Below, in pieces: positions 15,150 through 23,730 of a stretch of 64,000 bases of DNA. The DNA comes from Lytechinus pictus (lineage: Eukaryota). Below the pieces are notes generated by a model. It was not told where the DNA came from. It did not search any database and saw only the letters and a program-made list of their open reading frames with translations. Location: positions 14,758,001 through 14,822,000 of the forward strand of contig NC_087250.1 of NCBI RefSeq assembly GCF_037042905.1, given 5' to 3'. The stretch's first letter is position 1; every line of letters starts with the position of its first letter. Both the position numbers and the translations under genes were made by a program.

Positions 15150-15396
15150 AACGTAAAATTACACGTGTGGGACTCCCCACTCTTTCACACAAAATTTTAC
15201 CGGCAGCTTCCGAGTCGTCACACACGGGACAAGCAATTTTCGTCATTTCAAAGACACTTTATCTCTCTAAAAGGATGTTAGGCAGTTCTGCAGTTTGATT
15301 TAGTTCTTTTCATTCAAAGTCCACTCTCTGTATCTCACCTTTTAATGGAAGAAAAACCTTTTGGTGATCACCTCCACACTCCACAGCTCAGGTAAG
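15150..15396. promoter_or_regulatory. Probable bidirectional promoter and non-coding first exons of MRPS21 (-) and TYSND1 (+)
   Basis: Consensus + strand donor CAG|GTAAGT at 15389-15397. Candidate - strand donors at 15199-15200 (CCG|GTAAAA) and about 15337 (AG|GTGAGA). E-box CACGTG at 15162-15167. Both flanking genes start with acceptor-preceded ATG exons that need upstream exons. The assignment is inference. Confidence 0.45.
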
Positions 15397-16124
15397 TAAG
15401 CTCCGCCGGCCAGCTCTATCGAAAGTCTATCGATCGAGTTGCCTAGTCTAGTTCTAGACGATATTAAACGAATTTGTTTTCACCGATATATACGTTCTAT
15501 TCCGTGCGTACGCCCAGCCGAGTGTGCGCGCAAAACCGAAAACCTGTACTCCGAGAAAAATATCGTCTAGAACAGTTGCTCAGCGGTGACGTCACTCCCT
15601 CAGATTTTTGAGGGAAAGTCGTTAAAAGTGGACACGCCTCCCGTTCAGCCGCTAGTCTTTGTTAACAGCAGGGAAGATTACTGGGTTGAGAAATATGGTG
15701 TGATCTACCGATAAAATGAATATTAATTACCTAAGAAAGGACTTTTTGTTGTAAATAATTTATAAAAGAAATCAAATTAAACACACAAAAACATCATAAA
15801 TGAATCGGATCGTGTATGTTTCCCCTGATACCTACAATAAGGTTTTTGAGCGTAGACTATCGTATATAGATTACATATACAATACACACACACACATAAT
15901 CAATCGGATCGCACAAAGCAGCACAACATTAGCCATAGACTTGTGTACTGTACCGTCTGCCGTGATGTTGTATCAGGGAGACTCCCAACTCCCTGGTTGT
16001 ATTGTGTACTGTAGGCCTATACATAATTATACAGCGCGCGGTTTCCAAATTCAGTTTCTTGCGTGTTTACCAAATCAGACAAGTCTTGATCACTTATATC
16101 TTCGTTTTTTTCATATATGGTGTG

Positions 16125-16290
16125 ATGGCGACGGGTAATTAACGTCATTCTATCAGAGATTCCATCCTGCATATGTCCAAACAGTTGGGAACAACGACTT
16201 TGAAGATCCAACAGAACAAAGCTCTCGAAAGTTTCCTCCGAGGCCACGATGTCTTCTTGAATATACCTACTGGGTATATATGGAAAGAGG
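16125..16290 (+). pseudogene. Decayed N-terminus of a RecQ-like SF2 helicase carried by the transposon
   Basis: Reads MATGN*RHSIRDSILHMSKQLGTTTLKIQQNKALESFLRGHDVFLNIPTGY, then GK after a 4-nt TA-repeat frameshift. This is RecQ motif 0/Q plus Walker A (D-V-F-x-x-x-PTGYGK). One in-frame stop at 16140-16142. Confidence 0.75.
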
Positions 16291-16553
16291 GTAGCAACTT
16301 TATATCCTTCAAAAATGACACTCCCCTTGATTTGGGTTAATTATGTAATTTCTTCATGATGCCAGTTTAATTGAAGTCACATGGCCCCAAGTTTCCTAAA
16401 TGGAGTCACTTAAAAAGCAAGAAATTCTATATTTCCACATGTAAAATGACAATGACAATTTTACACATTTCCTCATAAACTTGTTCCACAGAATTGCTTC
16501 TTTTGTTCGCATGACAGTAATATATAGCAGGAAAATAATGTCAAAGTCATTAA

Positions 16554-17141
16554 AGGTCAAGTCTACCCCAGAAAAAATGATTTGAATAAATAGAGACAAA
16601 TCAAACATGAATAATGGTGAAAATTTCATCAAAACCGGATGTAAACTTAAGAGAGTTATGACATTTTAAAATTTGGCTTATTTTTCACAAAACAGTTCTA
16701 TACTCAACTCGGTGATATGCAAATGAGAGAGACGATGATGTCACTCACTCACTATTTCTTTTGTTTTTGTTTGAATAATACAATATTTCAATTTTTACGA
16801 ATTCGATAATATTAGTGCCCCTTTGCTCGAACCACAAAATGTTAGAATAATGGAATTACATGTGTTCAGGGAGGAATGAAACTTTTTTAACAGACAATGA
16901 CGAGAAAATCAAAATATTTCATAAAATAAAATACAAAAGAAATAGTAAGTGAATGATGTCATCGGTCCCCTCATTTGCATGCTGACTAAGATGTGCATAT
17001 AACTGTTTTGAAAAATTAAGCGAAACTTGAAATTGTTATAACTTTCTTATTTTACATCCAATTTTGATGAAATTTTCAGAGTTATGTTTGTTTGATTTTT
17101 CTTTATCTATTCAAATCAGTTTGTTGGGGTGGACTTGTCCT
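16554..17141. mobile_element. TTAA-target MITE (Kolobok-like) nested in the Academ-like element
   Basis: TTAA|AGGTCAAGTCTACCCCA ... TGGGGTGGACTTGTCCT|TTAA; same family as 45497-46409. Confidence 0.75.
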
Positions 17142-18166
17142 TTAACTGGCAAGTTTGATCTGAAATGTACTGTTCTTTCATAATATGGCTGACCAAACAA
17201 TAATTGGAATTTGCAGTAGAACAAGAATATAATTGTCTCCCTTTTGCATTTATTGAAGTTGACTGAGTAAACTCTCTCTGGAACAAAAAAATCCTAAAGA
17301 ACCATGACCAAAACAAAACTCACAAGTCGGTCATATTTGTACGTACAGTATCGCACTTTAAACAGTGGCGTACCTGGAATTTTCCACAGGGGGGGGGGCA
17401 AAACCGTCCGCCAAAAAAATTGACAAGCAAAAAAAAAGTCTTCAATCACAAATAAAGGACTTCGTACCTGGAAAAAAAATTGACAAGCAAAACAAAAAAA
17501 AGGTCTTCAAGCTCGTCAGGGGGCCAAGATAGTCCTTCGCCCCACCAATAGAAATAATTGGGGGGGGGCAAACATATCGTTTTGCCCCCCCCCCTCCTCC
17601 AATAATTCCGCATGTACAAAAATAAAATAAGATGGTAATGTTACACAGAAATCAGCAAGCGATATTGAGCTACACGACTCGTTCTTTGTTTAAAATCGTG
17701 CTCAAATTGTCCGCTTTTCAGATTGGAATACAAAAATTTTCAGCACGCGCTTCGCGCTCGCACCATTTCTGTAGCAAAACCCCATACTTTTCATGATTAA
17801 ATAGGTGAATAGAATGTCCCGTTCTCAGTTCTAAACCTCAAAAGAAGTCCCGCTTTGATTTGCAATAATCTTTTGTTGGATATAATCTTGTTCTTTATTA
17901 AAAACGTCCATTAAACTGTCATTTTTTTTTCAGATCGAAATTTTGCGCTCGCATGTTTTGTCTTTTTTAGATACCCATCTTAATCATAGGTACCAAAATG
18001 CAGAGGATATCAAGCTTTCTGGTCAGAATATAAAGAAATTTCAGCTCGCCCTCGGCACTCGCATTATCTGTGTAGTGAGATATGTATTCTCCTCATGAGT
18101 TACTACAAACAGTCTTTAAAAGGCACCTTTTTCCTATTTTCAGGTCAGTTTACTAAAAAATTTCAG

Positions 18167-18167
<1 letters not shown>

Positions 18168-18209
<42 letters not shown>
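18168..18209. repeat. (TA)n microsatellite
   Basis: Directly visible. Confidence 0.95.
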
Positions 18210-18210
<1 letters not shown>

Positions 18211-20827
18211 GAGTGTGTGTGAGTTTGTTTGTTTTGTGTGATCGAGCGCCATTGGAAAGTTGATTTATGATTTTGCCCCCCCCCCCCCAATGTGAAAAAA
18301 AGGATCGACGCCCCTGTGTATATATAGTAAAAGTATTGGCCTCATCGCAATAAAAGGGTTGGGACACGAGATTTTGAAATCGCACATAACATGCATAATT
18401 TGTGTTACTTTTTGCTTGTTTCTTTCTTTAATAAGTTTTTCAATCTCTCTCTATATATGTCTAAGAAAGATTATATGTCTAAATTCATGTATATTTTATG
18501 TTGTAATGATATATGTTTAAGTGGATTTCAGGGAATGGTCGTACGCAGCAAGGGGGAAGGGGGGGGGGCAAATTCCCGATCAGTTGTTGTGAAAACACAT
18601 TTTTTCCCTTAACATTTCATGAAAACTATGAAAAATGTGCAAATGTGAGATGTGTACCAAATACTTTTATTACACTTTATAAAAAAAATAATCGCCGCAT
18701 GAGCAGCTCGGTCCGTTTACTCTATCGTTTTTATTTTTATTTTTCAAAAATATGTTCGAGTTTTGCCCCCCCCCCCCCCCCCCCGGAAATATTATCTGCG
18801 TGTGGTCATGCAAAATGGCATGACTGGAAATCCTACATTTTGAAAAGAGCATTTGACAGGGTCAGACTTTACCCCTTTTTCAACATTTTCTTTTATGGTG
18901 CAAAAATATGTGCGCCGCTCGGCGGTGCCCCCCCCCCCTTTTGCCAAAAGCTGGATCCGCCTATGCAAACTACATGTAAAAGTTACACTGCAAACGAATA
19001 GTTACTAGCAATTTAATTAACTGGCAAGGTACATGTAGATCTGAACATAACGCTCTTTCATAATGGCTGCAAAAAATATATTTCATAAATACTGTACTTC
19101 AAAGGTAATGAGAAAATGTGCCTTCAAGTTTATTTATAGATCCAGACCGGACCCGAAATGAAATTGATAAATTATATACCAATCGAAAGCTTATAAGCTA
19201 CTAAATACAGCAAGGTATGCTATATTGATTTTCACCGCTTCCCAGCTGAGTAATTTGCTTAAGAATATTCCAATTATCGGCCTTCGAACCCCGCTTAGAA
19301 AATAGGCTTTATTGTGCTTTTCACCTGCCTCGAGACCGTGACGTCACGTTGTGTAAGAAGCGTTGTGATTCCATAGGTTTGTACACAGAAAAACAGGGTG
19401 ATTTTTTTGCTTTCCAGATAACGCATTTCATTCTCTTCACTTCTATCACAGAGGGATATCACATATATTTTTACCCACAAGCTTGAAATTATGAAATCTA
19501 CAGTTTTGAACTAGTTTTTGCCATATTTATTTCCTGCTTACTTGGCGCAAATTTCAATTCTATCTGCATTTAGATTATGTATAATAACTTTTCCTGACAT
19601 AGCAATTTAGGCCCAATAAGAGCCAAACAAAGAAATCACAAAAAAGGTAGTGAATAGTTGTAGGTTTACAACAATTTGAACAGTGAATAATTTTGAGTGC
19701 CATTTTCATCTGAAAACGAAAAAAAAATGGATTCATAACATGGAAATGGAAGAAAATACCCAATGCTTTTGTACACAAACCTACAGAATCACAACCCTCC
19801 TGACACAACGTGACGTCATCATTTCCAGGCGACATGGGGGTGCTCAATCGAAGCGTACTTTGGAGGAGTAGTTTCTTTGATTTTTATTTAATATTTTTAA
19901 CTATTGGAAGAATCATTACCTTTATTTTAATATATGATTGTTTTTACACCGGTCAGGGTCTTTATCGAAGAGGCTTCGTGTATACATCATTGGCAATATC
20001 ATTTCCTGGCTACCTGTAGCTAGATAATAATGTAGCTGAACAACAAAAAATAATTGTACGCATTATCTATATGTCCATGTAAAGTAAATAAATAAACTAA
20101 AAGTTCCAAGGACAATTGCAAAGATTTTCTTCCAAAATCTGATGCACGCATCAAAATCCGCATTTGTGAGATTAATCTACTTTTAAAAATCAATAATGAT
20201 TTTTATTCTGTTTTCCTTATCCCTTTCACAGCTCTGTACTAATCTGTACAAAGTACATGTACTTCTCAACCCTTTTTGTCATACTCTCTGCCCATGGGTG
20301 TCGATCGGTATTCTTGGTTGGGGGGGGGGGGTGATTGACACAAATGTTCTTGTGGATGGGGATCTTTCAACATTACCCCCACTAAAATCACAAGTTAGGA
20401 CATTTGAGAGTGGTTGATATGCATGGTGTTCTTGGAAATTGCTTAATTGTTGCAGTGTACTTTACTTATATAATTTTTTTTTTAATTCAATTTGTGTTAC
20501 AAGTAAGCTTATTATAAACCCATACGAAAGAAAAATGACAAAAAATGTCTGGACCATGTACAAAGTGATATGTTTATTGAGCATAATGTATACAACTTCT
20601 CTCTTAAATCTAACCCGACTGGCAATATTTTTTTTCTTCTTAATGCATGATGATAAAATGCACATTCGGACAAAAAATATAAGATTAGCACAAATTACAA
20701 ACTGTGTGGCTTCTCGTGTGCCATCGGGCTTACCGTCATTCCTTAGACGATTTTAACCCTGGATTTTAACATGTTTTAAATACTTTACAAGTGCATGAAA
20801 CAAAAACAAACATTAAAACAATCAAAA

Positions 20828-21110
20828 CCAGTGGATTAGTCTTCGGACTTTGAAACAGAGGGTCGTGGGTTCGAATCCCAGCCATGGCGTAATTTCCTTC
20901 AGCAAGAAATTTATCCATACTGTGCTGCACTCAACCCAGGTGAGATGAATGGGTACCCGGTAGGAAGAAATTCCTTCAATGCTTTGAGCGCCTAGGTAGC
21001 CCAGCTAAAGCCGGGGTAATAATAATAGCAGGGCCCGCTGGGAGAACAGTTTTCGGAACTGAAGCGGCTTCCCTGGGTAAATATACCTGTATTATTATTA
21101 TTATTATTAT
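20828..21110 (+). mobile_element. tRNA-derived SINE with slightly 5'-clipped head and (ATT)n tail
   Basis: B-box GGTTCGAATCC, anticodon-arm-like GACTTTGAAAC, body motif CCCAGGTGAGATGAATGGGTACC, (ATT)n end. Homologous to the copy at 55839-56130. Confidence 0.85.
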
Positions 21111-21752
21111 AAAACTCAACTGTCATGTCATGATATTTCTCCAACATTTTCTTGAACCATCAGTGTGTAATATCAGCTAATATACATTATGTGTTACAAT
21201 GAAATTTACGTACCGCATGAGTGTGCTCATATAGAATGTAAAACTGCCATCCTTTTCCAAACTCAAAAGATATTTCTTTTTGCCAAAATAAGAAAAAAAT
21301 AATCAAGTTTAGTTATTCAAGTCCATAACAATAACAAGAATAACATGAAAAAAAAACATCCGATGTTCATATCCTCATATCCGCTTTAGAGAGAATGAAT
21401 GATTATTCTTTCTGAAACCATCAATTGATTTCACTTATTAAAACATTTGTAAAAATATGATCATATTATATTGAGCTCACTGAACCTCAATATTTTCATG
21501 AGAGGTATCTGATGGGGTCACATGATAAAATGTTTTAATATCAATTACATCCAACCGCATACAACAAAGGCACCATATATGAGCTACTGATCACCAAACG
21601 ACTATATATTATGACTTTTTTAAAGTGAAATTTTTGCATTTGATGTGGGCTCACTCTTTCATGACTATAGGCACCTCATTTCCACATAGATAGATAATGA
21701 GGACATCGATGCTCTCCTGCAAAATATTATTGACCAAAAGTTATCGTTCAAG

Positions 21753-21773
21753 CATGGACCTACTAGGTCCATG
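21753..21773. mobile_element. 21-bp head-to-head TIR remnant of a P-like element with 7-bp TSD
   Basis: GTTCAAG|CATGGACCTA-C-TAGGTCCATG|GTTCAAG; same termini as the element at 34072-34804. Confidence 0.75.
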
Positions 21774-23730
21774 GTTCAAGTCAAGGTATTTGGATATACA
21801 AGTAGGGGTGACTTTCGTTTTGTGCACATCTTGCTTTTGGTATATTTTCTTGTTCAAAGGTTTACTGAATGCCGAACTTAATATATAACTAACATGACAT
21901 ACATCGGTAAAGTGTGTATAACCAGGCAAATAAATGAAGTGATAAGCCTATACTCTATAGAAACGCAAAGGTATTTTTCTTTTTCTCTGAATTTTCTGGG
22001 AATGAATAAGAAAAAGGGTGAAATAGAACAACATCTATTTCAGGTAGTCTCAATAATGTCCGAAAATCTTTCGCCTCATGTCAGACCTCATTGCAAATAA
22101 CTTTTTATGAGCGGCGATCCCTGGCGATTTACTTATTTTACATAACAAAAAGGAAGTGATATTCAAAAGGGTTGTAGATTAAATGGAACAAACATCATGC
22201 ACTTGGATGTGGGAGGGGTAAATCTGAGAAAAGTTATTTGTACTTTTTCAAAATTTACCCCTCTGGGATTTACGTCCATGGGGTTTTCCCTGTTTATCTT
22301 GCCACCCTTTTACTCCCGTTTATTTTTCCACCCGTTTATTTTTCCACCCTTTTGAATTAATTGATTTATTAAAATGTATTTATTCACCACTACCTGGTGG
22401 GATAGAACACCCTATCAACAAAAGTTGTTTTTAGTTCGTCGGGGTCCTTTTATGTCATGTGTTAAAACTTACATAAACATTTAAATTTTTGTCATCTTGA
22501 ACCTCCACCCATCTGTTTTAAAGTCCTGGAAAATAATGTTTTTATTTAATAACAATATACACACATTGCGACGGAAACAAACTGATTGATGGCATACTAT
22601 AATCATCACTATAATTATCATGATCATACTTTTTCATTTTTCATCATCATTATTATAATTTTTCTACCCTAAATTATTGGGGGGGATGATAATACAGGCC
22701 ATCCCCCACTTGAAATATTAGGGGGGGATATATCCCCCCATCCCCCCCCCCCCCCGTGATCGACACCCATGTCGATCTTTGACAGTGAAATATGTGAAGA
22801 AGACTTTGAAAATGATATATTTACAAGTGCCCACAGTAAAATGTACCGTGATGTGATCCATTCACAAGAATGAGAGTTTAATTACATGTATGAGTCTGAA
22901 TTTTCAATACCCATACTAAGACAAAATGCCTTTATGTAATTACATGTGTAGATGAAGAAGAATATAAAATATATCATTCAAACATGTACATTAATTATTC
23001 CATCTGAGTAAAGTGGAAAAACTATAGTCTGTATTGTTTTGAAGTTTGAAATTTGGTACATTAGCACCTTCTTTCATATATCATGATGGTAACATCATAC
23101 CCACAGATTTAACCAAGATATGCACATAGAGTGAAATAACTATTATGCATGTAACAGTAATTTCCCAACAATGAAATTTCTATTTGTAGCCTTAAAAGTA
23201 ATGAACTATCTCAAACTGTCGTATGATACATGTACATGTATTTACATCACATAGATCACGGACGCTCACGTCCCTGCATAGATATACTACACCAATCCCA
23301 CGTGCACAATGTATGCAAATAACGAGTGCAAAACGTAAACAACGGTTCGGCGCAGCGAGATTGACAAGTAACTCATGCATATTCATGAGCACTCGTCCGT
23401 TGACCTTTGACCTCTGACGTCACCGCTGAGCAACTGTTCTAGACGATATTTTTCTCGGAGTACAGGTTCTCGGTTTTGCGCGCACACTCGGCGGGGCGTA
23501 CGCACGGAATAGAACGTATATATCGGTGAAAACAAATTCGTTTAATATCGTCTAGAACTAGACTACGAGTTGCCCGGCGCCGGCGCCGCGCGCCCGGCGC
23601 GGCCGGCCGCCTCAGCCCGGGTCGCACTGTGCTGGCCGGCGGAATGCAAGGGCAAGGCCCAGGCCAGGGCCCCGCCCCGGCCGCGCCCGGCCCGTTCCAT
23701 AAAACAATCAGGAACAATGGTATGGTTGGA

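Follow-up and report, generated by a model that had tools for sequence, protein, structure and literature searches.

A young non-autonomous transposon family with a dead RecQ-like helicase exon in the sea urchin Lytechinus pictus: AcademH-type ancestry as the best available guess

Academ is among the least studied superfamilies of DNA transposons, and its helicase-encoding lineage, AcademH, was reportedly set out by Kojima in 2020 (Mob DNA 11:15). We know of no Academ member that has been shown to transpose, nor of an established role for the Academ helicase. In MuDR elements, which have long terminal inverted repeats (TIRs), the target-site duplication (TSD) measures ~9 bp; it is 8–9 bp in Merlin, 8 bp in hAT and 4 bp (TTAA) in Kolobok, and the termini of Mutator-like elements (MULEs) usually begin with G. 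For Academ, the part of PMC10045372 available to us gives TSDs of 9–10 bp in AcademH and of 3–4 bp in AcademX. DEAD and Helicase_C domains are assigned to both AcademH and KolobokH in the accessible sections of PMC10799480, and KolobokH encodes a RecQ helicase and is, in the portion of PMC9587614 at hand, reported from fungi alone (Kolobok-1_CCri). For non-autonomous elements, an extract of PMC4455052 gives the Repbase rule of equal TSD length together with an alignment of terminal positions 1–11, in which one mismatch is allowed. Here we describe an 8122-bp element of Lytechinus pictus (assembly of 811.7 Mb in 368 contigs) that extends from 15444 to 23565 of a 64,000-nt window, the whole stretch of DNA that was analysed (C6:14758001–14822000, contig NC_087250.1; positions without a contig prefix are those of the window). 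An original prediction, made from the letters of the window, had read this element as a helicase-type Academ transposon, and the TSD rule that it invoked agrees with the available part of PMC10045372.

We consider it virtually certain that the stretch 15444–23565 represents a single member of a young family of non-autonomous TIR transposons. Its outer parts were confirmed as predicted, namely 151-bp inverted repeats 8 kb apart with two mismatches, TAG..CTA termini and a perfect 9-bp TSD, CGAGTTGCC, on both sides (Table 1). The two TIR arms of 151 nt are 99% complementary; positions 73 and 97 of the repeat are the mismatched ones, and the similarity of the arms breaks off abruptly at position 151. 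The element begins with TAGTCTAG on the left and closes with CTAGACTA on the right, and the terminus sequence of the family is TAGTCTAGTTC. Inside the TIR, a TTCTAGACGATAT motif recurs inverted as ATATCGTCTAGAA near the inner end, which itself closes with a TGACGTCA palindrome. An unoccupied allele of this insertion (C6:14,773,435–14,781,574) is expected to read ...GATCGAGTTGCCCGGCG... with a single copy of the TSD; the corresponding joint, 15443 to 23566, did not occur among the joints listed for four sequencing runs over the window.

The 30-nt terminus, searched against the genome with up to 3 mismatches, gave 235 matches (114 forward and 121 reverse), and the reversed pattern used as a control gave none on either strand. 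One hundred of the 235 matches were listed, and the pair counts and copy neighbourhoods reported here rest on those 100 places, among which we found ~30 long inverted pairs, 7.1–17.2 kb apart, and 14 short inverted pairs, 149–340 bp apart. Target sites were compared in 22 insertions (L001–L030 and L064–L071). A perfect 9-bp TSD was present in 14 of 14 long pairs, for which 28 of the 30 end loci were fetched together with their partners (L023 and L024, whose partner ends were not fetched, stand outside this count), and in 8 of 8 short derivatives with flanks, which we call miniature inverted-repeat transposable elements (MITEs). The check proposed with the original prediction, a search of the genome for the TIR, thus found paired copies with 9-bp TSDs in 22 of 22 insertions. 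All 22 duplications differ in sequence and show no visible position-specific consensus. Their mean GC content was 54.5%, compared with 45.6% in the 50-bp flanks of the 14 long insertions, 37.6% in the far flanks and 37.5% in the window. The family thus inserts preferentially where the DNA is locally rich in GC, which may often mean near genes.

Each of the MITEs, 149–340 bp in length, consists of two TIR fragments placed head to head, with a breakpoint of its own and no other sequence. They probably arose through abortive gap repair after excision. In this they are like the gap-repair MITEs known as deleted derivatives of P or Ac/Ds elements, which also join two TIR pieces at varied breakpoints within their own TSD (9 bp here); unlike those derivatives, the MITEs described here have long partners that are themselves non-coding. 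Two copies carry a tandem partial extra TIR. In L018 (C7:13911381–13911650), positions 1–121 are followed by a TIR that starts from position 4, and in L061 (C6:18366008–18366260), positions 1–115 are followed by a TIR from position 18. In each case the breakpoint is close to the inverted ATATCGTCTAGAA motif of the inner end.

We compared the window copy with 16 other full-length copies, 14 of them collinear with it. Two subfamilies can be told apart among the collinear copies: A, of 7.9 kb, which includes the window copy, and B, of 8.5 kb. Fifteen copies were aligned with MAFFT, L039 and L040 being left out for their different interiors and the extra partial TIR of L046 being trimmed; substitution identity was 99.6–99.8% within A, 99.7–99.8% within B and ~98% between the two. 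Because copies within a subfamily are 99.6–99.8% alike, the family multiplied very recently, which bears out the description of the element as fairly recent.

More distant relatives retain only the ends. One sister family, represented by L063, aligns to element positions 1–1625 at 88–90%, and another, represented by L058, to positions 1–1921 at 85%; both have unrelated interiors. Across sister families, what is kept amounts to ~1.6–1.9 kb at the left end but only some hundreds of bp at the right. L039 and L040 have only ~570 and 220 bp of ends in common with the family, and they are also non-coding.

The body of the element, ~8 kb, is without a working gene, and its middle is filler with other repeats. 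Across 17 copies the longest stop-to-stop frame was 235 aa, and no frame was consistently common to the copies. Pfam searches with the 32 window frames of at least 50 aa returned only noise, and neither an Rfam family nor a tRNA gene was matched in the element. The element had been described as invisible in a track of open reading frames (ORFs) and as non-autonomous. Both descriptions hold: no ORF exceeds 235 aa, and the only trace of a helicase is an exon whose stop codon is common to 15 of 15 aligned copies, and for these reasons we conclude that the family spread as a non-autonomous element. The search for an autonomous partner with the same TIR, which had also been suggested, found none among the listed copies; the terminus matches beyond the 100 listed could include one. 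Three candidates were tried and rejected. The 17.2-kb copy on C7 is an ordinary copy with insertions of 0.4 and 8.9 kb, and the 11.2-kb copy on C6 is of the L039 type with nested material. A 75-codon frame at the right end, which might have been where a transposase gene begins (its first exon), matched only its own family and the sister families (79 of 79 candidates scored), apart from two very weak outside matches (E 0.3 and 1.1), and none of its strong matches (E<0.1) lay near a DUF6589, MULE or IS1595 match.

The exon lies near the left end of the element and points inward. Read from its ATG, it gives MATGN, a TAA stop at codon 6, then RHSIRDSILHMSKQLGTTTLKIQQNKALESFLRGHDVFLNIPTG, and finally a donor-like GT after ...ACTGG at 16274, so that only ~51 codons of helicase remain. 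To place it, we used five public echinoid proteins of 340–587 aa (P0001–P0005), annotated as RecQ-like, RecS or wrn-1-like under Lytechinus and Diadema names. In tblastn searches (database of ~0.37 Mb), residues 1–57 of these proteins aligned to 16125–16277 with E values of 5e-7 to 2e-4; P0001 matched at 47% over 45 aa (E 5e-7), and P0002 aligned from its own residue 1 at the ATG of the exon (E 1.7e-5). These alignments to echinoid RecQ-like N-termini confirm the predicted decayed helicase start at 16125. The first helicase exon of another locus, L057, is 44% alike to the peptide of the window over 45 aa; Pfam assigns this exon to DEAD, and its top PDB matches are BLM and RecQ. No later helicase exon was found by tblastn in any copy. 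The TAA at codon 6 is shared by all 15 aligned copies, and subfamily B has an additional 4-bp insertion; since the stop is common to all of them, the exon was dead before the burst. Depth in the contig sequencing runs was nearly nil over 15663–16304, and in the RNA run (about 6% of reads) it reached at most ~1 read over the exon.

The wider searches point to a particular group of helicases. Genome-wide, at least 150 matches to the window peptide were obtained (150 of 402 candidates scored), and the L057 exon has 81 at E ≤1e-6, most of them over the same ~58 residues only. In a large protein index the L057 exon retrieved five stand-alone helicases of 340–587 aa without a fused transposase; neither the window peptide nor the L058 exon had a match when compared with the longer proteins of that index. 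An exhaustive search with P0001 returned mostly short stand-alone helicases among its top 150 matches, and canonical RecQ proteins, those that have RQC and HRDC domains, appeared only from ~E 1e-40, under more than 120 short stand-alone relatives. Eleven of the longest P0001 matches (675–1606 aa) were all RecQ-type in Pfam, with RQC in nine, HRDC additionally in one and DUF6589 in none. As far as sequence resemblance goes, the peptide is like the members of an amplified family of RecQ-like helicases, short and stand-alone, and not like the few canonical host RecQ genes, a grouping with the latter being what the original prediction had named as evidence against itself.

In both subfamilies the exon is found at the same end and in the same inward orientation, as it is in sister families that are 50–90% alike. 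It also occurs in a second family, detected in L058, whose TIR is unrelated. This family has at least 16 copies that are 98–100% alike and start at L058:4989/4990 with TAGCCTCTTGTCGAGG... (TAGCCTC...); its helicase exon, MATRGF..., begins 238 bp inside, and its first 80 nt are inverted at L058:3816–3895. The segment L058:3816–5500 corresponds to C17:442115–443800, where a different repeat of 1.1 kb sits exactly between two outward-facing termini. Because repeated capture of one exon at the same position is unlikely, we infer that the exon is a remnant of an autonomous ancestor. Most likely, the present family originated by internal deletion from a TIR transposon that encoded a helicase.

A helicase-encoding TIR ancestor and 9-bp duplications together indicate the AcademH lineage, and AcademH-type ancestry is our best available guess, to which we would give a probability of roughly 0.6 on sequence grounds. 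The resemblance lies in the TSD, which at 9 bp in 22 of 22 insertions falls within the AcademH range of 9–10 bp, in the nature of the element, an animal transposon with TIRs, and in the RecQ-type helicase remnant at one end. Unlike AcademH, the family encodes neither a transposase nor a working helicase, consists of 8-kb non-coding copies and TIR-only MITEs, and has no autonomous partner among the listed copies. KolobokH, which is likewise a TIR transposon lineage with a RecQ helicase, was ruled out by the TSDs: all 22 are 9 bp and follow no TTAA rule, as opposed to the 4-bp TTAA of Kolobok. The hAT superfamily was ruled out in the same way by its 8-bp TSD.

A non-autonomous family would have to be mobilised in trans by a transposase made elsewhere, and the loci that carry PF20231 (DUF6589) offer a candidate. 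This domain had 26 matches in the genome (34 of 34 candidates scored). At two loci it is paired with a helicase in convergent orientation: on C10, a helicase at 32260035–32263513 (+) faces DUF6589 at 32269949–32272083 (−), and on C5, DUF6589 at 55936791–55937657 (+) faces a helicase at 55954692–55957478 (−). With ~22 DUF6589 and 12 helicase loci, ~0.01 pairs within 20 kb would be expected by chance, compared with the two found. The element itself, with its left-end helicase exon pointing inward, fits this convergent layout. That the family is moved now, or was moved until very recently, by the sea urchin's own helicase-plus-DUF6589 autonomous element is a tentative idea that we regard, on balance, as doubtful. 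Uninterrupted DUF6589 frames of 1658–1854 aa were observed at C2:69719789, C5:12277810, C5:13589833 and C20:3208006, and also at C11:9109021 and C11:9280131. Several of these long-frame loci have identical scores; they look like an intact multi-copy element, for which the nearest 20 kb contain none of the listed helicase matches, and could be an active source of transposase. A helicase C-terminal fragment, open over 247 aa and 45% alike to P0001, was noted at C7:13927615–13928217 (−), 8 kb past the right end of the family copy L046, which may be coincidence.

Several observations weigh against AcademH-type ancestry and against DUF6589 as its transposase. The helicase evidence in the window comprises only ~45 aa, and the peptide alone was undetected by Pfam, in PDB sequences and in the large protein index. 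MuDR and Merlin elements likewise typically have a TSD of 9 bp, and MULE and IS1595-like transposases are both present in the genome, with 17 and 53 matches. No transposase is encoded in the element copies, no partner carrying the family TIR was found among the listed ones, and none of the 26 DUF6589, 17 MULE and 53 IS1595-like matches lies in or beside them. The helicases of the two convergent loci stand no closer to the exon than unlinked ones do: the peptide is 40% alike to the helicase of the C5 locus as opposed to 45% to the unlinked L057, and the C10-locus helicase was unmatched among the matches listed for it. Most DUF6589 matches lie in open frames of 1451–1854 aa, and none of the helicase matches listed is within 20 kb of these. 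XPG_I and XPG_N domains, tried as a bridge between DUF6589 and Academ, failed in that role, as none of their 4 and 7 genome matches was near a DUF6589 gene. Finally, we found no published link between DUF6589 and Academ. The terms DUF6589, PF20231 and Academ did not occur in the supplements of PMC10799480, a literature search for DUF6589 found a single preprint, which does not call it a transposase, and one for Academ and sea urchin returned nothing relevant. As a separate observation, a weak XPG_N match (E 0.004) lies at C2:66706938–66707192 (−) in an intron-free frame of 729 aa, which is unlike the spliced host genes of the XPG family and may encode a nuclease carried by a transposon, as in AcademX.

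Among the alternatives, the one that survives best is that of a non-autonomous MuDR/MULE element whose helicase exon was captured, as in Pack-MULEs, and which is moved by a genomic MULE transposase. Non-autonomous MULEs, including Pack-MULEs, share with our family the 9-bp TSD (strictly kept here in 22 of 22 insertions), long TIRs (here 151 bp), an enclosed gene fragment and GC-rich targets (54.5% in the TSDs against 37.5% in the window), and the 17 matches to the MULE transposase domain (PF10551) in the genome include open frames of 723–894 aa. Set against these general MULE habits, several sister families, as well as one family whose TIR is unrelated, have the same helicase first exon in the same place and orientation, which would take an unlikely series of independent captures; moreover, no MULE transposase is linked to the TIR (0 of 17 matches in or beside the listed copies), and the terminus begins with TAG and not with the usual G. 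We therefore regard a MULE origin as unlikely.

Next in order is a lineage outside Academ, a superfamily not yet named that combines a helicase with DUF6589 and from which the family would derive. The convergent arrangement at two loci speaks for such a lineage, as do the negative XPG test of the link between DUF6589 and Academ and the silence of the DUF6589 preprint on any transposase function. Against it, AcademH is already a helicase-bearing lineage with TSDs of 9–10 bp (PMC10045372, in the part available to us), so that identity with AcademH is the simplest reading. The case for a separate superfamily appears weak to us, and we would not expect it to prevail.

It is very improbable that the family is of the Merlin type, non-autonomous and dependent on an IS1595-like transposase (PF12762). 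The Merlin TSD of 8–9 bp would be compatible and the genome holds 53 IS1595-like matches, but none of these is in or beside a listed copy, the nearest, on C7, lying 15 kb away from a MITE; the TSDs measure 9 bp without exception in the 22 insertions compared, and the helicase exon would be left unexplained. Lastly, a segmental duplication or assembly artefact with a chance inverted repeat, and no transposon at all, can be dismissed because 235 terminus matches over many contigs, against none in the control, and 22 different 9-bp duplications refute it.

The history of the family was most likely as follows. The promoter-proximal first exon of a RecQ-like helicase was left at the left end of a deleted element and had acquired its stop before the multiplication. 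A transposase from elsewhere would bind the repeated TCTAGACGATAT-type predicted sites in the 151-bp TIRs; excision would be followed by reinsertion with a 9-bp staggered cut, whose repair would give the 9-bp duplication. Incomplete repair of the gap after excision may have produced the many short TIR-only derivatives.

The remaining parts of the window copy are collected in Table 1. Most of its excess length over the 7.9-kb copies is due to an insertion at 20828–21110 that resembles a short interspersed element (SINE). This insertion was missing from every copy compared by BLAST, its breakpoints being mapped against L043, and ARAGORN called no tRNA gene in it. Its depth was extreme in all four sequencing runs, and because of this enormous depth we consider it a member of a very abundant, probably active repeat. 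Depth was also very high at the nested element at 16567–17129 (bins 16626–17267). Modules of the interior are bounded by poly-C or poly-G runs, and GTTTTGC followed by a run of 10–16 C (or the complement) occurs five times, at 17579–17600, 18270–18291, 18552–18575, 18760–18781 and 20306–20331; these five sites are common to all collinear copies and seem to bound short repeat modules. Outside the element, the window copy adjoins a CpG-rich run at 23575–23640 and lies 50 bp after a donor-like CAG|GTAAGT site at 15388.

Table 1. Features of the window copy (positions in the window).
Feature	Position	Strand	Description
Left TSD	15435–15443	none	9 bp, CGAGTTGCC, same as 23566–23574
Left 151-bp TIR	15444–15594	+	starts TAGTCTAGTTCTAGACGATAT
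Left subterminal block	15595–17360	+	85–88% in more distant sister families with otherwise unrelated interiors
Dead RecQ-like helicase first exon	16125–16277	+	ATG at 16125, TAA at 16140–16142, points inward
Nested short inverted-repeat element	16567–17129	none	79-nt arms, 81% complementary; shared interior
Second nested inverted-repeat element	19327–19830	none	90-nt arms, 74% complementary; shared interior
SINE-like insertion	20828–21110	none	~282 bp, (ATT)n end, private to the window copy
Right subterminal block	23192–23414	−	also kept in sister families; contains the 75-codon open frame
Right 151-bp TIR	23415–23565	−	ends ...CTAGACTA
Right TSD	23566–23574	none	9 bp, CGAGTTGCC

For annotation, the family means that pipelines relying on ORFs will overlook or misclassify ~30 or more 8-kb copies without ORFs, together with their MITEs. 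The ~99.7% identity of copies and the many deletion derivatives that arose independently suggest that the family was active very recently in this sea urchin, whose genus serves as a genetic model; such activity is a hint that a transposase of a little-known type may still be alive there. If the source of the transposase were found, the family would provide donor substrates of widely differing size for a transposition assay and could become a transgenesis vector carrying 8 kb. If that source proved to be a helicase-plus-DUF6589 element, it would be the first Academ-type, or unnamed helicase-bearing, transposon caught active in a laboratory animal, and the range from 149-bp MITEs to 8-kb elements would offer natural substrates for probing the role of a transposon RecQ helicase.

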